Assembly: GCF_009834535.1 (NCBI RefSeq)
Contig: NC_045696.1
Span: forward strand, 17,920,001 to 17,984,000
DNA from: Camelus ferus
Taxonomy: Eukaryota
Direction: 5' to 3'
DNA length: 64,000 nucleotides
Shown here piece after piece: positions 1 to 31,146 of this stretch. Both the position numbers and the translations under genes were made by a program. Numbering within the stretch: position 1 is the stretch's first letter; every line of letters starts with the position of its first letter. The notes below the pieces were generated by a model, which saw only the letters and a program-made list of their open reading frames with translations, had not been told where the DNA came from and ran no database searches.

Positions 1-3000
1 CTGAATGACAAAATTAAGCATTTTAATCTAAAATATACACATATGTGGTCTCGGTACTATCAATTCCCAGTCTCCTGAAATAACTATTGATACCTTACAA
101 ACACTAACCAAATTTTAGGATAGGAAAAAATGTACAAGACTTACAGGGAGAAAAATTAAAATAAAAATACATTTTAAAAAATTAAATAAAATATGAAAAA
201 GTACACTGTATTCCTACATACAAAGATCGAATATAACATTTCTTCCAAAATTAACCACAAATTCACACAGTACAATTATAGCAGGGGCTTCTATTGGATT
301 TGACCAGTTTGATTATCTTTTCTTTTATTTTGAAAAGCCAGTTGCCAAAAATAGTATACTTTTGAAATTAAAGAAGAATCAGAAGGAAAGAGGAGAAGGA
401 AGAAGAGGAGACGGGGCAGAAGGACAGGAAAGGGGAAAGAGGGAAAGAAAAAAAGAATGGTAAGAATATATATGAAAAGACAATAAAATATGAAACACAG
501 TTATAGACAGATAAATATATGAAATGATGTGAAAATACCACATTTCCAGGAAAATGCAAAATAAAAATACAATTAGATATAATTTCACCAACTTCAGATG
601 AACAAAATTTTTAAAACCTAGGAATATCAAGAAGTGGAAAGGCTGAAAATAAAATATCTTATTTGCCTCTGGTATTAATATGCACTGCTACTATTTTATA
701 ATAGTCACTCAACATGAAGAGGTAGCTCAAACAGGTACCAAGCACACACTTAAGTGAAACTTAGGCACATGTGCTAGTAGAGACTTGTACAGGAAAATTA
801 ATGGATGCAATGCATGCAAAAGCCAAGAATTAAAAGCAAGTTAAATGACCAATAGCAAGAGATTAAACATACATTTTAGAAGCAATGATACAGTGTACAT
901 AAGGCGTAGTATTGAAAACAGTGTAAGATTTATAAACATATTAAAATACCAAGTCTGACAGTGTATATTGTTTATAGGGATGTAAATATGCAATCAGATT
1001 TTCAACTAATGTATGAAAATGATGAGCAACAATCCTAGGATAGTGATTTCCTCCGAAAGGGCTTCTAACAGGAAAGGAAGCACACTTTGTTCCAATGTTT
1101 TATTTTTTAAGCTTGGTGAACTTTCATACATTACTTGTTATAACTTCATGATAAATAATTTAGTACATTTGAAGTTGGTAAATGTTGACTTCTGTCTTTA
1201 TTTTGTAGCCTCTTTGATATTTTCATTCGAAGTTATTGACATATTTTTCCATTTCACGTTTTGATATTAGTAATTTCACTAAGTCAAACCAAACCAGAAA
1301 CTTGTTGAACAGTTTCCACGGTTCTTTGCTATATATTCTGAGAGAAATTAAAAAATATATAATAATCAAGAAAAATTAATAGCCTGGTTTAATGGATAAC
1401 ATGGAAACATTTAAAAAGGCAAACAAAAATATTCACTGGATTGAAAGCAGTAATATTTTAAAAATAAATTCTAAAACAAAGCAATAATCACCAATTAATT
1501 GCTCTTAATTCCTGTAAAGAACATAAATGTTTGTTTCAAAGATAAAATGTTTTATATGTCAGGAAATTTCAGAGCTTTAATAAGCAACACTTTTCATTGC
1601 TAATATTCAAAGAAAGATATAATACATGCTGCTTCCCAGGTTTACCTCAAAATGGAATATGTTCAGGAGTGGGGTGACTGTGTGGTTACCTCAAACATAC
1701 TGGAAACAGTGCTGTTGGATTCCAGAAGAGGAAACGATTTTAGGGAGGCTTCAAGAAAACATTACATTTTTCATGGGCAAAATAGAGAAAGAAAGCTAAA
1801 CATAGAAATGATCTATTAATCATTTGTAGACTAATTAATAAAACATTACACAAATGATGAAGGAATCAAAACTATCAGGTTATTAAATATCTCCACCACT
1901 TTTCCTATAGTCAATTCAGTTGAAAATACATGACTCTTTGTAATTATAATGTTTTTAATGCTTTAATTTTTTTAGCATCCTATCAGGTGTTCAGTTATTA
2001 CCATGTCTGAAAAGAAGTCCTCTGTGTAATTTTGACTAACATAATAATGTTTGACTAGAACCTTGTGCTAAAATAAGATAATATAGAGACAAAAATATTT
2101 ACTTTGCTTTCTTGTAAATATCCGTTTTGATTCATGGATATGTCTGTTATCTGTTCCTTCTGCTCAGCTGAACATCTGTTTTCCTAACCCTCTTTTTTTC
2201 TCTAATAAGGTTTGGGAACTTGAAAAACAATCTTAGAATTAAGTGCCACCTGTTTATAGGACACCCAGGCCTGTTTTGGATATCCTCTGGGACACGAGGG
2301 CATGTGAGGCTGTTTCCAGGCTGCAAACGGCAGGAAAGTTAACAGATGCTGGTGGTGCTCCTTGGATTACTCCTGGAGATCACGCACCTCGAAGGATGCC
2401 AGTCCATGTTTTCTCTGATGGATTTTGGCAGCAAGACGAGAGAAATAAAATGAGAGCATATTTGGTGTCTTATATAAACTGCCTAGAATGTACATGAGAC
2501 AAAATGATGAAGCACAGGCTTTTTTTCTAAAAAAATATAAAATATATCCAAACGTCTGTGTATATTATCCAAAGGTATTATTTTGAAATCATCTATTCAA
2601 TGAATATTCACTATTCATTGCATTTACTGAGATTTATGGGCATAGAAAAAGAAAGAAAATATACAAGTCACTCTCCTATTTACTGTTCTGTTTTAAGATT
2701 CACTTCATTTGTTTTGGTAGCTCATTAATATTTTAATATTTTTAATATTTCATATTTAAACACCTACATATTTTGGCATTTGAATATTTGATTTTATTTT
2801 AACATTTAAATTTTAAATATTTTAAATAAAGAACATGGAAACAGAAGTTGTGATAAGGCATAATCCATTTTTCTAATGTGCAATGAACATTTGATAAAAG
2901 TTAGATTAAATTAAAAAATAAATTCTGTGCATACTCATAGTCATGACCAAGGCTATTATTACTAGTGTTACGCTTTGGAAAATATCGCAGACACATTTTA

Positions 3001-3254
3001 AAACCGTAAGTCGAAAGTCCAGTAATTAATTCAGTGGTACATGAGATATAGCAGCATCTTCCGTAGAAACTGCTTTTAAATAAAAATTTTTATAGAGTTG
3101 AGCAGAAAATGGAAATGTATTTTATAGAAATTTGCCTGAGAGATATTTTAAAGTTTAATTGCTTATCTTTTGTGAGGACATGCAATTCACAATATTTTAC
3201 CTCTGTAACACTTTACAATTTAAAAGTTCTTTTAAAATTTGTTGAACTCTTATT

Positions 3255-3370
3255 TAAATTTCACAACACCCCTGAGAGTTTACAAGAGAGATGTAAATAT
3301 ACCCTCCTTCCTACTGATGAGAAAACTTAGGCCTAGAAATGTGAGGTGATGATTCAAGGTTAAATGTATA
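3255..3370 (-). mobile_element. MIR fragment
   Basis: TCACAACACCCCTGAGAG...GATGAGAAAACTTAGGCCTAGAAATGTGAGGTGA. Confidence 0.6.
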
Positions 3371-6300
3371 ATTACTATAAAAAAAAAAAAAAACCTGAAG
3401 AACTTGTCTTCTCATCCTGTACCATCTGTATGAGATTATGATTTAATATCTTCCCATATACTTAATAATTTGACAGAAGCCACTTGCTTCCTTTCAGAAG
3501 CTAAATTTTAGGGGCACAACAAAAATGAGGATTAATGGTAAAGAACAGATTATTGAGAACATTCCATTAAAAGATACTGCATTTTCTATCAGTTAACTCA
3601 GGGCAACTCATCATTGTCAACAAAAAATGTGTTCAGCTGCAATGTGGGCTATAATATACAAGCAATTACCCTATTTTTGATACTTCTTCTCATGATGTTT
3701 TGTTGTCATCATAATTATATTTATATCCATTACCACAGTCATTTCCAAATGTTGAACGGATTAGTTAAATAGAAAACAGGAATACAATTCTTACACTGGC
3801 AGTCTTATATTTATCATTGATTAGAAATAATCATTCTTTTTTTAAAATGAGAAACTGTTTTCCTCCTTATACTTTATTGACTATCAGTTTAAGTTCCAAG
3901 TTCTTTTTACCATATTAAAACTTTATATAAATTTAACATTTAAAATATTGTTGGATTCTACGTAGTTTAAGAATTAACCAGAAATTTGGAAAATTTTCAA
4001 TTTACTTACTTTGTAACTATTAAATTCAACATTCTTTAAACACCAAGAAACCAATATTTCCATTAACACACTACTTATGTCACTAAAATATAATTTACTA
4101 ATTTGATGCACTAACATTCATAAATATTCATTGTAAATTCATCTACTCAGATGGAAATATTTTAACAAATTAAAAAGTCTAATACAGATTTGAAGAAATT
4201 TAAGTACCTTAAAAATAAGATAAAACACAAACCATGATGATTATAGATATTATCTCACATTAAAATAGATTAAAAGCCCTAGTATATTAGATTAAATTTT
4301 AAATGTCTATGTTCATCCTTGTTTTGAACCTAAAGAAAAAGAATCCTTTTATGTCTATATCTTGCCAGCTTTACCCACTAAAGCTGGCAGAAATTGTATT
4401 GAATTCTATCTTCATAATTTTGCATGATTGCAGTGCACTTCCATGCTCAAAAGGATAACCATACAAAATACCATTTCAAGCTAGCCAAGCAAAGGTTTCA
4501 GGATCTGAGTTGTTGACCAAATGATGTTTAATTAGGAGAGAAGACATTGTTTTATTGTATAATTTTATCCAATCCTATCTATAGGGTCATTTAAAAACTT
4601 CTTTTCTATATGTGTCTTAAAAGAAATTTGAAGTCTCAGTTTTTCACAGAAATTTAGTTTCCAGAAACCTCCACTGTCAAATTGATACAATATTTAAATT
4701 TGTGTGACTGACATTACCTAACTCATTTTGCTATTAGAGTATATTAATCTAACCAATACATTATTTTAAACAGACATGCATATTCATCTATATATATTAT
4801 TTAAGCTATGCATATTTGTATGACATTTATATATTTAAATATGCATTATAGAATATCATAGATAGTATCTGTCTCTCATCCATTTATCATTGTGTTTTAG
4901 AATACATTGGGAATTGAAATATCACATTTCTTGAATCATACCATTATACTGCTTTTACTACAGCACTTCTTAATAGAAAGGATGACTGCTGTATTTAGGT
5001 AAACAAGTAAATAACTTTCAGCTTTGAAAGTAGCGAAATAAAACCCAAAGAACATTCAATCATTTTATTCAATGTAGAACTCCTAGAAATCTCATGACAG
5101 TGAAATAAATCCTACTAATTATGAAAAATAATGCATCCAGGATACTTAACTATTCCTAAATCGCTTATTTATGTGCTCTCCAAGTTATTTTACATAGACT
5201 TGAATTAATAATTTTAATAATAATAATCACCACAAAAATTCACTTGCTAACAAGTGAGAAAAAAAAGAATGAATTGGGGAATATACCTGCAAGAAATTTG
5301 TAACCAGCCAAGATGAGATCACTCACAAGAAATGGCACAAACGACTAGCATTTCAATTTTTTAAATTACCAAAAGAAATTAAGTCTATATGTATATATAT
5401 AGGCAGCAAGTTTTATTGGTTTTTGGATAGTGTGTATATACGTAAAAGAAGGATTCAGAATTCAGAATGGCTTCTTTATTTTTATTTAATTAGGTGCCCC
5501 AATGCTTTTCCATCTTTGCTAACTGTTTGGCTTTGGAGACTTTCTAAGAAAATTAGCTTGCCTGATAAGAATGTTGAGAGTGGTTCTGTAATCGTGGTGA
5601 TAATCATGAGTCTAAACATTACCTCAGGAGCCTTTGCTGGAATGAATATTTTATTCCAAATCTGATACAGTCTGTGCTACAATCTCTCTGGCCCTTCACT
5701 GGGCTCCACTGCCAATCAGCCTGGCCAAAGTCCTTCTGGATTAATGACTATGCAACACTGTCAACCAGCAATTAGCAGGAAGTCACCGTGACTTTATTCT
5801 ATGGTGAATTACAGCTGATTTGATGTTTCTTGATAGAGGAAAAGCACAGGGAATAATTCAGTGATATCCATATTAAAATCAAGTTAGTCTTACAAAAGCA
5901 CTTACTATCAATTGCTAAGAATCCTGATAAAGACTAATTTCTTAAAAATTCATCAGGAGACTAAAATTTATCTATTAAGTATGTAGTACCTATATCTTTG
6001 AACTTAGTTCATTTAGTGTTACGTTAAAATGTTTTATAGAGTGGATGATGGCATGTAAACAAGGCTTAGGAATTTGGGGGGTCATTATTTTAGTCATCTA
6101 GAATACGATTTAAATTGCTAAGGTCCCCTCAGATAGCTTTAAGATCTAGATACAGGTCCTATATGTAATTTGCTCATTACTGTTGAAGGCATAAATACAA
6201 TAATAAACACTTTTGAGTGAACGTTGGATTTCTCTGCAGAAGCACTGAAAGAGTATGGGTGGATGATCTACAGAAAGATAAAGATTATTGCAAATGGCTA

Positions 6301-7309: not shown

Positions 7310-7480
7310 AGCCTATCTTCTGATTCTCATTAAACCTTATAGGTGAGTATTAACTCTTTCAAACGAGGAGACTAAGTCTACCAGACACTAATTAAATTGC
7401 TAAAAATTTAAGCACATGTATGAGTGAGAGAGCTGGGATTTAAATCTAGGACTTCTTAATCTAAAGCTCTTGATTGTTCT
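7310..7480 (-). mobile_element. MIR fragment
   Basis: GAGGAGACTAAGTC...GAGCTGGGATTTAAATCTAGGACTTC...AAAGCTC. Confidence 0.5.
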
Positions 7481-9169
7481 ACTGTGTAAATTAAATATGC
7501 CAAGGTCATTTCTGTGTCCTGGGAAATGTAGACACGTTAAAGATCCCTGTGCTTTAAACATACCCATGAAAGTAAAGGAATACTTCGAGGAAAAAAAAAA
7601 ATACCCTTGTCACCTAAATCTTAAGGGTTAAATAGAAATTTTACTGGCAAACAAGATCATTGAGGTGAGTATAGTGGTGAATAGAGAAAAGCATGCATCT
7701 CAAGACACTCAAGAAAATTTGATAAGAGATTAAGATGTAGATTTTTAAAAAGTCAAAAGGTAGGAATGGTATTTGCAGGAGCTGAATTTGGAAGCTGTAG
7801 CAAAAAAGGAGTGATCAGAAATGAAAATATAACAAGGAGGAGTCTAGCACAAAGGCCAAAGGAAAAATAATGCTCAAGGGGAAGATGATGGTGAATAGTC
7901 TCCAATACTGTTGGTGGACTGAGCTGAGTGAGAACACAGAATAAACTTGTATTTTAGTAAACAGAAGTTGGCAGACTATCTTTGAAGAAGTGATGTTGTA
8001 GTCAGAGTGACATATTAGGAGTTAAATGAGAGACTATATGATAAGAAGAATGGGACAATAAAGATAGAATCACCAAAATACAAGCAAGCTGTAAACAATC
8101 ATTTTTTTCAAACTTTCAAATAAAATGCTCTATGACCTTTGATCATTTCATACAAAATAGTTGCCGAGAGACTGAACTTTTAAGGATATTCTTAGTGTGT
8201 GACTTTTGAATGTCACCTTACATTATCTGACCTTTAGAATTATTTTATATTTTTTTATGCTACCCACTATTTCTATAAGATTGACAGTTTTCTCTTAATC
8301 CAAACATAATGTTACATTTATAACATTGTTTAACTAAAATATCAATGTGTTAGCAATACTCTTCCTTTCCAAATCTATTCTTCCCTGCATAGGTGAAATT
8401 ACTGGAAGCACTAGATGCTAAAAAACAGAACTGTCAGGGAAAGAAAATTGGGACTCAGGATTTACTGTCTTTGAGTGGAGCAGATGATGAAAGATGAATT
8501 CAACCCCTGAGCTCTCAAGAATCCAGATTTGAAAGGAAACTTGGAATTCATTTATCCAATTAATTAATTTCCTCTCCCATAATACTTTCAAAGCATTCTC
8601 TGACTTCTGTTTAAATGTTCTATTACACATAGACTCAAGATCTAAGTAAATAAAACTGAGTTATTATATCTGTTAGCCATCAGCTGAATAGAAATTTGAT
8701 ATTGAGTGACAGAAAGGTACTGTGCTGGGAGCAGAGTGATTTTTTTTTTTTTTTACAGTTTTGATATTACATTATAGACAGATTCAATGAAGACAAGCTC
8801 TCAAGCTTTAACTGATTCCCAAGTATAAGAAGCCAGCTCTAATAGGAACAACCACTCTATTTTCTTGGACGTTTTTCCCCCCAAGTAGTGAGCACATGGA
8901 AATGAATATAGCCCCCAGCTGATGAAGGAGGCAGCAAACATAATCTCAGGATGACAAAGACTTGGCAAACAAGAAGATGAAAAGAAAGTAGTAAAGGAGT
9001 TTCTACAGGTAATGCATTTTAACCCATATATTTCTAAATACAAAACTGGTAAAAGTTTATTTTCTGAGTTATTTTTTTCTGAATAGCTGCATGCCCTTAT
9101 TTTCTTTCACCTACAAAAACATTCCTTCATTTAATGTACTGGAGAAAGGACATAGAGATACTCATTAAT

Positions 9170-24808: not shown

Positions 24809-24920
24809 CCCTCTACTGCTAAAAACTTTCTTTATAGGATATGGTGGTTAAGATACTAGCTGTAACTTCAGTTTGTGCCTGATACTCCTCTTTTCTTGAC
24901 TCTGACGTTTACAGTACTTC

Positions 24921-25373
24921 TGTGAAGGAAAAACCAGGCTGGACTAACAAGATAACTCACAGGTATAGGAACGTGAAGGAGAGGCTGGGCTGCGCTAACA
25001 AGTCTAAGTATTGGAATACTGATCTGAGTTCTGCTGGACTAACTTGTAAATCTAGGTTAATTAGCGTTGGTTTGCTGTTCATGTTTTTTTGCTAGCCAGC
25101 TGGATTTTCAAAGATACATATCTGGCTTTGGAATGTTGGCTTGCTGCCTCCCCGCCTCCACCTTTGTGATGATAATGCTGCTAAAGCTGTTCCATGCCTA
25201 TTGGCCGAATACCCCAAGCTTGTACTTTACCCTATAAAACCTCATGTGCACATCTTGAAGGTGCTCAGAGCTTCGGAGCAGAAGCCCCTCTGAGCCCGCC
25301 GGCGTAATACATCTGAGTACTCCAACCCTCCGAGTGGTGCTTGTTTCTTGGCTGGCCTGTCGTTTCTGTAACA
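24921..25373 (+). repeat. 5' LTR (453 bp)
   Basis: Starts TGTGAAGG and ends GTAACA. Reverse CCAAT (ATTGG) at 25200-25204, TATAAAA at 25233-25239, AATACA at 25306-25311. By-eye alignment to the 3' LTR gives 11 substitutions and 1 indel. Confidence 0.97.
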
Positions 25374-25377
25374 TTTC

Positions 25378-25395
25378 TGGAGGCCCCAGTGAGAT
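25378..25395 (+). promoter_or_regulatory. Primer-binding site complementary to the tRNA-Thr 3' end
   Basis: TGGAGGCCCCAGTGAGAT lies 4 nt after the 5' LTR. It matches the reverse complement of mammalian tRNA-Thr ...ATCTCGCTGGGGCCTCCA at 17/18 positions; the mismatch is a CpG transition. Confidence 0.85.
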
Positions 25396-26513
25396 ACAAC
25401 CACGCCGGCCCCTTGAGCCGCTGGACTGGTGGCTCCAGCCGACCGGGGGACAGGATTCTGGCAGCAAATGAGGTGGCGCCGCCCGATGATATTTCGGGTT
25501 CTCTTTCGTGACAGGCAACTCGGCCCCCGGGTGGCTGGGCTACAACCAGATCCAGACTCCATGGAGGGACGGACAGACTCACCAGGTGGCCGTCCGGACA
25601 AGGTAGGAACCCCTGGGAGGTATCAGGTCCTGTCCCATTGGACAGAAGAGGAGGCGGATCCCCTCCTACAGGAAACAGGATATTGGTATTGGTGGGAAGA
25701 ATGTTGTTAACCTCTGTGTGTGTGTGTGAGTGAATGAGCGGCCTGTGAAGCATGCGATCAGGCTCGAGTTTGTAGCTCCACAGCATTCTGCTACGGAGTT
25801 CGAGTGAGTCCCAACCTGCAGTTCCGTGGTGACCTCATACGGCTCAGGGCGGTATCGGTCCCTCAGGGTCCCGATCGGAGTCAGCGGCTTATACAGACCC
25901 GCCAAAGCTAAGAGGCACCTTCATCCCCACGAGGGGAGCGGCCAGGCGGACACAACGAAAACCCTCCCTTGTCTTGTCTGCGACACTGGCACAGGGTGGC
26001 TACACTGGGAGGGAAAAGGACATAGATAGCCAATGAGTCAACGCCCCTGTGCCCTCGGAGGCTAGGATGCTATTTCTTTGAAAAGTATCCTACCTGATTC
26101 TGTCACAGAACACCCGAGACTTAGTTTCCCCTACAGAACAGACCCACGTAGTGCCCCTTTTGCCTACCCCCAGGCCCCCAGGACTCGAGTTTAGAAGACG
26201 AATTCCTTCAGGACCGGGCTTACCTGGCCTTGGAGGTCCCTTTTCTAGTCCATTTGTTTTACCATCTGCCATCAGTCCCACGCCCCTGATACATTAGTTC
26301 AGGATATAGAGAGGATTTAATGAAGAAAGTCCCTGGAACTGCTTGGGGCCTTGAGCTCCAGAGACATCAGCTGTGACTGGAACCCAGACTCCTTGACCAA
26401 ATTAGCCTTCAGACAACTCATAGACCCAGCAAGAGAGCAGTCTCTCTGGGAACTCCGGTGTTTTGAGGAGTGAAGAAAAGATATAAAGGCTACCTTCCCA
26501 AACATCTAAAAAA

Positions 26514-28272
26514 ATGGGAGGCTCTAAGTCAAAACCCGCCACTCTAGACTGCATGATTAAGAATTTCAAAAAGGGGTTCCCAGGAGACTGTGGAATTTGA
26601 ATGACCCCTGGCAGGCTCCGCACTTTGTGTGAGCTTAAATGGCTGGCCTTTGGAGTCGTGTGGCCCTCAGGAGGAACTCTGGACCTAGCAACAGTGTGAG
26701 CAGTCTATCAAATAATCAGTGGAACCCCAGGCCACCCAGATCAATTCCCTTACATTGACTCCTGGCTGAATATCGCCCATACTCTACCCCCATGGATTCG
26801 GTTCTGCCCAAATGGACCTGGACAATGTAAAATATTAGCAGCCCAGCCAGTCCAGGCCAAAAAGACAGACAGAAAAAAACCTATTTTCCAGGGAGACGCA
26901 GAAGACAGATATGCCTACCCCCTCCGTATGCCCCCGGGGCAACAACAGCCTCCCGTCTGAGGACCCAGAGGCAGAGCCCAGCCCCCAGCCTGAGCCGGTA
27001 GGAAGGAGAATCCGCTCAGCACAAGCCGGGAAGCCAGCACCACTGGCCCTCCAAATGCCGCTGCAGGAGACACAAGGGCCACAACAAGTTGGGGAAAACA
27101 GGACTGTTCAGCCTGGGAACCCCGTAATCTGCTACCAACCCTTTAGCACCACAGCCCTTCTCAGTTGGCGCCATCATACTCCTTCCTACTCTGAAAAGCC
27201 GCCCAGCAATAGCAGCAGCAGCAGCCCCTGCAGCCCTGGCACCGCCTCCACCTCGGCCGCCGCCTCCATGGCAACTGTCGGGGAACGCCAGCCCCTGCCC
27301 AGTCCCAAAGCGATGCTGGGACAGCCTTGGGCTCTTTTGCAAAGTCATACAAATATTTGGTCTCTGTCCAGCCCACGAGGATTTCTACTTGGTGGTATAT
27401 GACGACTGTAATCAGGCTGCCAAGCCGCAGGCTATGATTGACCTCGTAGAGTCTATCTTCCATTCTCACCAGCCCACCTGGGAAGATGTCTGCTTCTGAC
27501 TCTTTTCAATACGGAGGAGAGGAGAAGCATTCTCACTGAAGCATGAAAATGGCTGCAGGGCCAAGCCCCTGGGGACACAATGGATGTTGAGGGATGGGCC
27601 ATGACACATGCCCCTGACACCAGACCAGACTGGGACTTTAACACCCAAAAAGGAAGAGAAGCGCTGCATGAGTACCAGGAGGCCATCCTACAAGGGCTAA
27701 GAGCGGGAGCCAAGAAGCCAACTAACATGTCTAAAATGACCATGGTGACCCAGAGGCCAGATGGAACCCCCACTGACTTCTATGAGAGACTATGTGAAGC
27801 ATTCCGAGTCTACACTCCTTTTGATCCTGAGGCCCAAGAAAACCAGCAGATGGTCAACGCTGCCTTCGTAGCCCAATCATACCCAGATATATGCCAGAAA
27901 CTCCAAAAACTGGATGGATTCACAGGGATGAACGCTACACAGCTGCTGGAAGTAGCAAACAAAGTTTTTGTAAACCAAGAACGGGAAGCCCAATGAGAAG
28001 CAGACCAGCAAATGAAGCAGAAAGCCACTCCTTGCAGCAGCCCTGGGGAAAACAAGCTTCAGCCAGAATCCTGCACCACCCCGGAAGAGGGGACCCCAAC
28101 CATGGATGCCCCTGGGCCGAGACCAGTGCGCATACTGCCGAGAGACAGGACACTGGAAGAACGAGTGCCCAAACAGAAAGGATGGAAAGAGAGCACCCCC
28201 AAAAGGCCTACTTATCAGCTGGAGCCACCAGCCAGTAATCACATCAGACTGACTGGGGTCGACTTAGAATAG
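26514..28272 (+). pseudogene. gag: ERV gag (MA-p12-CA-NC), disrupted
   Basis: MGGSKSKPATLDCMIKNFKKGF...GHPDQFPYIDSW (HERV-E-like MA); PPPY late motif near 26918; CA YQPFS...TPSYSEKP/QAMIDLVESIFHSHQPTWED; MHR-like TQRPDGTPTDFYERLCEA; NC knuckle CAYCRETGHWKNEC from 28127. TGA stops at 26598, 26697, 27544 and 27994, plus frameshifts. The terminal TAG (28270-28272) is in frame with pro. Confidence 0.95.
27202..27427 (+). pseudogene. ATXN7: Captured fragment of cellular ataxin-7 mRNA inside gag
   Basis: CAG-rich tract (27204-27224), then PGTASTSAAASMATVGERQPLPSPKAMLGQPW, then in a shifted frame GLFCKVIQIFGLCPAHEDFYLVVYDDCNQAAKPQA. These match recalled ATXN7 GPGAASTSAAAMATVGERRPLPSPEVMLGQSW and [35 protein letters not shown]. 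Flanked by AAGCCG direct repeats. Confidence 0.9.
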
Positions 28273-28760
28273 GAGAGACTGCGCTCCCTGCTCCTGGGCC
28301 CCCGGGAGCCCAAGGTCAAGATGTTTATAGGGGGCCAACCAATGACTTTTATGGTAGACACAGGAGCAGAGTATTCTGTGGTGACCCAACCTGTAGCCTC
28401 CCTGACCCAGAAAAAGGTGACTATTATAGGGGCTACTGGGGAATCAACTGCCCGCCATTTCTGCCAACCACGATCCTGTCAAGTAGGGGGCCATCTAGTG
28501 ACACATGCCGTTATTCACTGTAAGGGACCATATTCAGTGGTATTAACTACCCCTACAGCTGTTAAAGTTGCAGGAATCATCCCTTGGATCCACCTCTCCA
28601 GGGTTAAGAGAGCGACTTCACCTCAGACAGAGGGTCCCTGGAAAATTGAGAGTGTCCAGGGAGACCCGCTCAAGATCAAGATCAAGAGGGACCAGAAAGG
28701 AATCGACAAGCCCTGCTCTAGCCACACCTGGAAGCTGGCTAGTCAACGCACGGCCGAAGC
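28273..28760 (+). pseudogene. pol: ERV pro-pol remnant: protease N-terminal part fused to an RNase H scrap and the integrase C-terminus; RT deleted
   Basis: Aspartic protease motif FMVDTGAEYSVV; AVIHCKG at 28507-28527 (RNase H motif); KGPYSVVLTTPTAVKVAGIIPWIHLSRVKRA (gamma-type IN C-terminal GPY/F region). No YxDD motif present. Confidence 0.93.
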
Positions 28761-28951
28761 TCGAGGAAAGCTCAACGCAGCTGTTAAATGTATTAATTTT
28801 GTGCTCCCTTGCCTCTTTCCTTGTTTGCTATACTAGTCTGCGTATTAGCAGTGGGGCTAGCTAGCGCCGCCCCACCTGACTGGAACATAGGCCATAGAAT
28901 CCTGATAGCTACTTTATATCTTGTTATAATTAGTGCCATCACTGCAGCATC

Positions 28952-29537
28952 ATGTCTAAGATAATCATAAGGCTGATGTTACTGACGCTAATGCCCTCAC
29001 TCTCCTTGGCTGTACAATGCACCTGCATGGAACCGGGTGACAAATGGTCCATGTACCAACCTGTATTTTCAGCTTACAGGTGAATTCAGCCACGATCTCC
29101 AACAAATAACAGAAACCCTGGGAACTCTGCAAAATCAGATTGACTCTCTGGCCGAGGTGGTCTTACAAAACAGGAGGGATCTGTACCTTACTCACGGCCA
29201 AAGAGGGGGGACTATGCCTCTCCCTAAAACGAAGAGTGCTGTTTTTATGCCAATCAATCAGAAATTGTCAGAGAGATGGTTCAAGAGTTACAAGACCGAG
29301 TAAAAAGAGAAAACATATTTTAAATAAGAGCCCATGGACCCCCTGGCTGGCACTGTTCATAGGCCCCTTACTCCTGATTTTTGCAGTTCTGCTGTTTGGG
29401 CCCTGTGTCCTAAACTTCCTGACCCACTTTGTCAGTGAGTGGATAGAGGCTATAAAACTTCAGATGTTAGCCTCTAATTATGAGCCCTCGCAACAGATAA
29501 GTGATGATGTTACTCCAACTAGAGTTGTGAAAGCATC
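28952..29537 (+). pseudogene. env: ERV env remnant: signal peptide plus TM, SU largely deleted
   Basis: MSKIIIRLMLLTLMPSLSLAVQCTC (signal-like); heptad and ISD LQNQIDSLAEVVLQNRRDLYL/LTAKEGGLCLSL..ECCFYANQS (CX6CC, frameshifted); membrane span WLALFIGPLLLIFAVLLFGPCVLNFL. Confidence 0.92.
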
Positions 29538-29549
29538 AAGAGGGGGGAA
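29538..29549 (+). promoter_or_regulatory. Polypurine tract
   Basis: AAGAGGGGGGAA immediately 5' of the 3' LTR. Confidence 0.93.
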
Positions 29550-30001
29550 TGTGAAGGAAAAACCAGGCTGGACTAACAAGATAACTCACAGGTCTAGGAA
29601 TGTGAAGGAGAGGCTGGGCTGTGCTAACAAGTCTAAGTATTGGAATACTGATCTGAGTTCTGCCGGACTAACTTGTAAATTTGGTTAATTAGCGTTGGTT
29701 TGCTGTTCATGTTTTTTTGCTAGCCAGCTGGATTTTCAAAGATACATATCTGGCTTTGGAATGTTGGTTTGCTGCCTCCCCGCCTCCACTTTTGTGATGA
29801 TGATGCTGCTAAAGCTGTTCCATGCCTATTGGCCGAACACCCCAAGCTTGTACTTTACCCTATAAAACCTCATGTGCACGTCTTGAAGGTGCTCAGAGCT
29901 TCGGAGCAGAAGCCCCTCTGAGCCCGCCGGCGTAATACATCTGAGTACTCCAACCCTCCGAGTGGTGCTTGTTTCTTGGCTGGCCTGTCGTTTCCGTAAC
30001 A
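29550..30001 (+). repeat. 3' LTR (452 bp)
   Basis: Near-identical copy of 24921-25373, preceded by the PPT and followed by the CTTC TSD. Confidence 0.97.
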
Positions 30002-31146
30002 CTTCCTTTCACTAAATGCTGTATTTACAATTCCTACTGGCTTAAGTGTTTTTTTTTTTTTTTTAACCATGCGTTTTTGGAAATAATTTATAAAACTAAG
30101 ATTTTTTTTTTTTGTTAAAGAGTTTAAATGAATTTTGAGCAAATATTTAAAAAATACAGTTTTAGGGTAATATTAAAAGACCCCATACAAGGAGCACGTT
30201 TATACCCACTCCCTGCTTCAAAATGGGCCATCAATACAGACTCCTCTCCTCCCCTAGTCTCTTCTCACACTATTCCATGGCTCTTTTCTGTTTTTTGTCA
30301 TGAATACCAGTATCATGTGCATATTCTTTATGCCCATTGTTAATTAGTAACATACTTGGCTTTATGTTGATGCTTAATAAAACATAATTGGTGAGGAGTT
30401 GAATTTTTCATGTAATATATATCTAAATATTTTGTCAAGTAAGTAAATATAAATGTATTGAATCTCTATTAATATTCAAAATGCTTTTCCAGAAGTAGTA
30501 ATTTACAGTATCAATTTTGAACTACAGACTTTCAGATTTTAGGTCCTGAATTACTCTAGTGCTTTCAAGTGGGTTGTGGGTGTTCAACAATTGTTTTAAA
30601 TGTTTCTCTTTTTCTGAAGGCCTTGTTTTAAATGCTGTAAACTTCAAAAGGATAGAAGACCTATTATCTGTAATGATTCAATTTTTTAAAAAATCATTCA
30701 TACTTTGAGTAAACTGAAATGTGCTCCCTGTGGTATTTTCCCTACACTAAGAACTAGTCATTACTGAGAAGTTTAATGTATAATAATTGCTCTTCTATCA
30801 CCTGTTTTACGAAACAAAAATTTATTATCCTTATTTTAGTTTCCCAGGTAAAGAACATTTAAATGTGAGGATATCTGCACAGAACTGAAATGCAGATAAC
30901 GAGACTGAATTCAAACAATTAAGACAACTATGAGGCCAAAGGACAACTTTTAAACTGCTTTTGGAGTTTATAAACTGAGTTCATATATTTCTTTAGGTAT
31001 AGAAATCAGATGAAGCATGAAAATCTTACTTCTCGTTATACATTACTTGTAATTATAATTTTTTCTCTTCTAAACATTTTTGCCCCAAAGGGTTATGAAA
31101 TAGTTCAGTGTTCTCGAAAGACACTGAATACTATGGATCATACCAT

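Follow-up and report, generated by a model that had tools for sequence, protein, structure and literature searches.

How did a fragment of the host gene ATXN7 come to lie within the capsid region of a retroviral gag gene, and from what kind of template was it copied? The fragment occupies approximately positions 27198-27433 of the window, which is the whole 64,000-nt stretch of Camelus ferus DNA analysed here (C1:17920001-17984000), and the 2.09-Gb genome was searched for related copies. The explanation that we favor, at a probability of roughly four in five as judged from the sequence comparisons, is that reverse transcriptase (RT) would have switched from viral RNA onto a circular ATXN7 RNA of exons 2-5 (627 nt), copied it for one lap and switched back.

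The window contains a defective gammaretrovirus-like provirus of 5,081 bp (24921-30001) with a 4-bp target-site duplication (TSD), CTTC, on both sides. Its Pfam domains, the 4-bp TSD and the TG...CA LTRs place it among the gammaretrovirus-like (class I) ERVs. The scores of RVP, MLVIN_C, TLV_coat and Gag_p30 exceed their own cut-offs, and the Gag_MA match (E 1.5e-5, 25.3 bits) falls under the curated cut-off of 30. Bat ERV products were the nearest named Gag proteins in a protein search (66-68% identity). It lacks RT, most of pol and the env surface portion, and its gag contains several stops. A short GT microsatellite was also observed in the provirus leader (window 25700-25730). The features of the provirus are as follows:

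24917..24920, plus strand: left TSD, CTTC, identical to the 4 bases at 30002-30005
24921..25373, plus strand: 5' LTR, TG...CA, 97.2% identical to 29550-30001 (K2P 0.027)
25378..25395, plus strand: primer-binding-site-like stretch adjoining the 5' LTR, recognised by sequence and retained in related copies
26515..27197, plus strand: 5' part of gag (matrix, p12, capsid start) with stops, from Pfam Gag_MA and the ORF list
27197..27202, plus strand: AGCCGC, joint of a secondary deletion of ~205 nt that defines the young subfamily (15 young against 22 old aligned copies)
27203..27322, plus strand: stretch derived from ATXN7 exon 3, including the MATVGER... coding part, by host alignment
27207-27224, plus strand: CAG tract within the exon-3-derived stretch
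27237/27238, plus strand: joint of the 53-nt linker deletion, by alignment to the host
27323..27330, plus strand: AGCCTTGG, joint of the 94-nt exon 3/exon 4 deletion (host AGTCGTGG / AGTCATGG), common to 37/37 aligned copies
27331..27344, plus strand: final bases of ATXN7 exon 4, by location of host exon 4 and alignment
27345..27432, plus strand: first 88 nt of ATXN7 exon 5, by alignment, with the terminal KPQA homology at 27422-27432
27433..28272, plus strand: 3' part of gag (capsid, nucleocapsid) with stops, Pfam Gag_p30 E 5.8e-34, 117.8 bits
28273..28836, plus strand: protease fragment fused directly to the integrase C-terminus in one ORF, Pfam RVP and MLVIN_C
28992..29549, plus strand: env transmembrane remnant, surface part missing, with a purine-rich tract at its end, from Pfam TLV_coat and sequence
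29550..30001, plus strand: 3' LTR, by comparison of the LTR pair
30002..30005, plus strand: right TSD, CTTC, pairing with 24917-24920

A reading made earlier from the sequence only had attributed the insert to ATXN7, and both protein and genome searches bear this out. The translation of 27329-27499 matches residues 131-164 of human Ataxin-7 (PDB 7ktr_N; E 9.7e-10) and then runs into gammaretroviral capsid, corresponding to MLV CA residues 31-54. The ATXN7 exons on contig C17 match window 27230-27330 (85%, exon 3) and 27343-27432 (89%), and the host exons to which these parts map lie 38 kb apart. The exon 4/exon 5 join falls exactly at window 27344/27345, where an exon-exon junction had been expected; it is intron-free, and the host intron at this point measures 38 kb. 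The host gene lies on the minus strand of C17, with exons 2, 3, 4 and 5 in order over 52 kb and exon 2 situated 13.4 kb upstream of exon 3; a circle of exons 2-5 from today's gene would measure 627 nt. The four exons are:

ATXN7 exon 2, C17:14564816-14564913, minus strand: 98 nt, 5' UTR, AG/GT flanks
ATXN7 exon 3, C17, minus strand: 355 nt, ATG and 13 CAG, AG/GT flanks
ATXN7 exon 4, C17, minus strand: 69 nt, AG/GT flanks
ATXN7 exon 5, C17, minus strand: 105 nt, AG/GT flanks

As assembled, the host exon 3 ATG (MSERAADDVKGEPRRA) is out of frame with the polyQ/MATVGER part (L009, C17:14550200-14552800, minus strand 1295-1180), owing either to a wrong 1-nt call by the assembly within the GC-rich GGC run or to a true divergence from the human gene. 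When the exon-3 ORF of the host, read from this ATG, was compared with PDB, only a poly-Ala low-complexity match was returned, and the ATXN7 identity was taken from exon 5.

Relative to the host cDNA, the insert has the two internal deletions that had been described earlier. The first, of 53 nt, removes the Pro/Arg linker between two GCCCC motifs at 27237/27238; the tract is of low complexity and evolves fast, and the apparent deletion could partly reflect later change in the host gene. The second, at 27323-27330, removes 94 nt across the exon 3/exon 4 border, between AGTCGTGG and AGTCATGG, and agrees with the predicted loss of about 31 codons: 94 nt equal 31 codons plus one base, so the ATXN7 parts on either side stand in different frames. 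Cryptic splicing was considered as its source and rejected, since the available GT...AG pair in the host sequence, read by eye, gives a join one base off. The net insertion in the window copy is 226 nt, which puts the downstream capsid out of frame.

Inspection of the insert flanks found neither poly-A nor a target-site duplication at the borders, as the sequence-only reading had stated, and the features of L1-mediated processed pseudogenes (a 3' poly-A and a 7-20-bp TSD around the retrocopy) are absent. The insert lies instead inside an LTR-bounded provirus with its TSD and has microhomology at its junctions, as is found in template-switch capture. A spliced RNA template is supported, and the borders argue against L1-type retroposition. 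The earlier proposal of copy-choice onto a co-packaged spliced ATXN7 mRNA, guided by microhomology, stands for the spliced template, the rejection of L1 and the microhomology, and is not supported in the linear form of the RNA, to judge from the other copies of the family.

A search with the insert and its gag flanks gave 71 candidates, of which the best 40 were scored, so all copy numbers given here are minimum values. The insert is present at no fewer than 38 loci, distributed over many contigs, with 74-96% identity to the window copy. Among the best 40 of the 71, 16 young copies are colinear with the window (86-96% identical), and 22 old copies (74-89%) have ~205 nt extra between window positions 27197 and 27198. 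The alignment holds 37 insert-bearing copies, 22 old and 15 young; the 16th young copy, L067, was read separately. Thirteen relatives with uninterrupted gag at the insert site were sampled, and older insert-free copies may be under-sampled in such genome searches. In all 13, gag reads TCTGAAAA-GCCGCAGGCT-ATGATT, or departs from it by one base among the middle ten, and gives EKPQAM.

The additional sequence in the old copies is ATXN7 in permuted order: gag-SEK, exon-5 tail, exon 2, exon 3, exon 4, exon-5 head, gag-MIDLV. The exon-5 tail comprises the 17 nt after KPQA up to the exact last base of the exon, exon 2 is complete from its first base, and exon 3 also starts at its first base. Within 12-nt windows, the exon 5 to exon 2 join, last base to first base, is free of gaps in 22/22 old copies, which differ from the host there at 0-3 positions; the exon 2/exon 3 join is ungapped in 21/22 old copies and the exon 4/exon 5 join in 36/37 copies. 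The inserts are 83-91% identical to the present host exons, with several exon-2 positions at which the host departs from every ERV copy, and hold no unexplained segments of ≥8 nt beyond local GCC/CAG/A-rich expansions and small duplications. They carry a non-colinear join at a splice donor/acceptor pair, consist of circle exons only and have no poly-A, which are the hallmarks of circRNA-derived retrocopies; the window copy lacks the back-splice join owing to a later deletion.

Both virus-host junctions of the old form lie at one 11-nt KPQA homology. The sequence-only reading had noted that KPQA coding at the 3' junction belongs to both gag and ATXN7, and the host does carry the junction bases: gag AAGCCGCAGGC and host exon 5 AAACCGCAGGC agree at 10 of 11 bases, eight of them exact and contiguous. 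Since all 13 insert-free copies carry this homology, gag must have had the KPQA 11-mer before the capture. The permuted order, the exact back-splice join and the position of both primary junctions at KPQA argue together for a circular template and against a linear mRNA.

The 94-nt and 53-nt deletions and the junctions are common to 37/37 aligned copies. Those two deletions would point to one capture followed by descent to the window copy; the window insert is therefore inherited, and the capture within the window provirus itself that the earlier reading implied did not take place there. Descent also accounts for the window 5' junction, for which shared GCCG had been claimed. Shared bases do exist (AGCCGC, 27197-27202), and they mark not the capture junction but a later deletion of ~205 nt between two AGCCGC repeats, present in 15/15 aligned young copies and running from the 5' KPQA junction to the AGCCGC that immediately precedes the CAG tract; the 5' junction of L067 is identical. 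This junction is secondary because the deletion is shared by the young copies and these also share substitutions with an old sub-lineage (L011-L016 and L018). Two old copies, L022 and L026, keep the host AATG at the start codon, and the other 20 share a 2-nt loss there. In a tree of the flanks (305 columns), the 13 insert-free copies fell on one side of a branch with support 85/75; the tree is unrooted, had 2/47 inner branches well supported, was used only for this split, and alone gives no direction of gain or loss of the insert.

The CAG tract in L067 has expanded to dozens of uninterrupted units (C37:28793500-28803499, ~7440-7550, minus strand), compared with ~5-6 units in the other ERV copies and 13 in the host gene; here a disease-associated tract, carried in an ERV and neutral there, has undergone repeat expansion.

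The anatomy, the exon borders, the deletions held in common, the separate integrations and the relative ages were observed directly, and a circular template, its packaging and the strand and timing of the switches would complete them into the following series of events. A gammaretrovirus-like element would have packaged a circular host RNA, the back-spliced ATXN7 exons 2-5. As for the strand and timing of the switches, we infer that during minus-strand synthesis RT, on gag near the capsid start and coming from the 3' side, left the viral RNA at AAGCCGCAGGC, which encodes KPQA, for the closely similar AAACCGCAGGC of ATXN7 exon 5. One lap would have taken it through the exon-5 head, exon 4, exon 3, exon 2, the back-splice join and the exon-5 tail, where it would have met the KPQA homology again and returned to the viral RNA. 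The 94-nt and 53-nt deletions between short repeats may have arisen at capture or before the first surviving copy. The chimera would then have multiplied on three deleted backbones with proteins from intact relatives, and the later AGCCGC-AGCCGC deletion would have cut out the exon-5 tail together with exon 2 and the beginning of exon 3, giving the young subfamily that includes the window copy.

The same DNA footprint would be left by a linear RNA with exons 2-5 repeated, whether it arose by trans-splicing or exon repetition or was transcribed from these exons after an ancestral tandem duplication, if RT had switched at successive KPQA sites. We consider this unlikely. Linear exon-repeat RNAs are rarer than circRNAs, and among the 22 genome matches listed for the exon-2 segment, 21 are ERV copies and the single non-ERV match is the ATXN7 gene, so today's genome retains no duplicated exon 2 in that list. 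The 5' exons of human ATXN7 are moreover documented to back-splice in the available parts of PMC13313202 and PMC10786880.

Recombination or gene conversion at the DNA level, between a provirus and a separate retrocopy made from the circRNA by another RT such as that of L1, has a precedent in that circRNA-derived pseudogenes exist (PMC4897178, in its available text). It is nevertheless very improbable here: no free-standing, non-ERV retrocopy occurs among the genomic matches listed for the insert or for exon 2, all of which lie in the ERV family or in ATXN7 itself, and both junctions fall in the short gag homology, as copy-choice during reverse transcription predicts.

A linear, spliced, co-packaged ATXN7 mRNA, with a switch on and back and the window junctions as the original ones, would fit the window copy taken alone, which is colinear (exons 3, 4, 5) and has microhomology at both ends. 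It can hardly be reconciled with the 22 older copies, in which exon 3 is preceded by the exon-5 tail and exon 2, joined exactly at the back-splice site; on a linear mRNA RT would have arrived in exon 1 rather than at the final base of exon 5, and the young 5' junction is nested in the old lineage and explained by one AGCCGC-to-AGCCGC deletion. An assembly artefact or chance resemblance has a negligible probability in view of the at least 38 loci on many contigs at 74-96% identity to the window copy, the individual TSDs in 5/8 insert-bearing proviruses and the Ataxin-7 match at E 9.7e-10.

The full-length comparison covered the window and 16 ten-kb stretches, and included eight insert-bearing proviruses (window, L067, L072, L073, L068, L069, L070 and L071). 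Five of the eight have their own 4-bp TSDs: CTTC in the window, TTGC in L067, AAAG in L072, GTAA in L073 and AAGC in L071. In the flanks of L068 three of four bases agree, and a clean TSD was read in neither L069 nor L070; the insert-free L059, L061 and L063 each have their own TSD. The insert has spread through independent provirus integrations.

Three backbones carry the insert. L070 has an 8.6-kb backbone with a full-length gag-pol region; L068, L069 and L071 have a 6.3-kb backbone with one shared 2.1-kb deletion; and the window, L067, L072 and L073 have a pol-deleted 5-kb backbone. The direct protease-to-integrase layout of the window is also found in L067, L072 and L073, while ~3.2 kb separate protease from the integrase C-terminus in relatives without the insert, and the deletion of most of pol is visible in L072 against a full-length relative. 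Most of env is missing in L068/L069/L071, L070 and L072 by the same comparison. It was also observed that L068, L069 and L071, among the oldest insert-bearing copies, have identical internal deletion breakpoints (~2924 to 5062 against the full-length L059) in addition to the env loss, marking an early non-autonomous sub-lineage of ~6.26 kb. L072 (C14:46575930-46585929, 3051-4928) has a second partial env and another LTR beyond its 3' LTR and is a tandem or partly duplicated locus.

LTR divergence amounts to 8-11% in the old copies versus 2-3% in the young ones, with K2P values of 0.080-0.106 in four old copies and 0.023-0.029 in four young copies. At a neutral rate of 2.2e-9 per site per year, which is assumed and may not be that of this host, the old copies would be roughly 18-24 My of age and the young ones 5-7 My. 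Eight insert-free copies (among loci L058-L066) range from 0.015 to 0.096, so the intact lineage was integrating throughout the spread of the ATXN7-bearing forms.

The coding capacity of the chimera is poor. The gag frame of the old form hits a stop inside exon 2, 20 codons past the KPQA site, and no long chimeric ORF is conserved across the 37 copies, so a selected ATXN7-Gag fusion protein was dropped as an explanation. A protein search with a 236-aa chimeric ORF (L057) yielded plain Gag relatives only and no ATXN7-Gag chimera among proteins of 129-413 aa, in a setting where broken genes are rarely annotated; its best matches cover ≤86% of the query, and the gag part makes up 82%. As gag is interrupted and no chimeric ORF is conserved, the ATXN7-bearing elements must, we infer, have been copied in trans by the proteins of intact relatives.

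The literature search found no report that connects ATXN7 with an ERV gag, nor, besides a 2016 letter (in whose supplementary material the neighbouring ERV family may be given) and the reviews based on it, any junction-level mechanism for the capture of a circRNA by an LTR element. The family described here provides a junction-level example for the circRNA-derived pseudogenes reported in 2016, implying that retroviral particles can take up circRNAs and that these can act as templates. Further cases could be searched for by a simple signature, permuted exons framed on both sides by one and the same short homology. The copies would also preserve, in a form that can be dated, the ancient back-splicing of the ATXN7 5' exons, among them the CAG exon relevant to disease, and they show that a gag-interrupted chimera can multiply in the long term on three deleted backbones. 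A wider proposal, which we put forward tentatively and hold to be doubtful in its full extent, is that circRNA packaging and one RT lap may be a general route to circRNA-derived pseudogenes, including the LTR-flanked mouse circRFWD2, that the capsid-truncating insert may have made this element an especially successful parasite of its intact relatives, and that its copies may be dated circRNA fossils with a CAG tract, of about 20 million years.

In comparison with known systems, the ATXN7 ERV resembles the acutely transforming retroviruses, in which host sequence replaces or interrupts gag and the chimera is defective and helper-dependent. It differs from them in that the ATXN7 ERV shows no trace of a read-through transcript or a selected coding host gene, and in that what became fixed in the germ line, and was then amplified, is a fragment devoid of function. 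Non-autonomous ERVs copied in trans are known from mouse, where ETn is copied by MusD; as in that system, the deleted, gag-defective camel elements are at least as numerous as their intact relatives in the sample, and unlike ETn, the lineage is marked by a probable captured host circRNA.

Human ATXN7 gives rise to several circRNAs of 336-1106 nt, all containing exon 3, according to the available part of PMC13313202, and a 405-nt two-exon circle from the locus appears in that of PMC10786880. The camel circle would agree with these in its locus, in the CAG exon it includes and in a length within 336-1106 nt, and differ in species; a 627-nt circle of exons 2-5 is not named among the human isoforms in the available portions of the two reports. 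Retrocopies made by LTR retrotransposons through template switching at microsimilarities are reviewed in PMC5408686 (citing Tan et al. 2016 and maize Bs1), and as far as its available text describes them, they share with the camel case the chance packaging of host RNA, the RT switch at short similarities, the position of the insert between LTRs and the lack of poly-A; the probable circular template, the coincidence of entry and exit site and the permuted exons set the camel ERV apart. The closest likeness is to the circRNA-derived pseudogenes of PMC4897178 (Dong et al. 2016), for which non-colinear junctions are the accepted mark and among which, in the available text, the mouse circRFWD2 pseudogenes have LTR-rich flanks and a mechanism called mysterious. 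A non-colinear back-splice junction, circle exons only, no poly-A, many copies per circle and an association with LTRs are common to both; unlike the pseudogenes as described there, the probable camel circle lies inside gag of an identifiable provirus, has both junctions at one 11-nt homology and comprises exactly one lap, and its spread is explained by the multiplication of the provirus.
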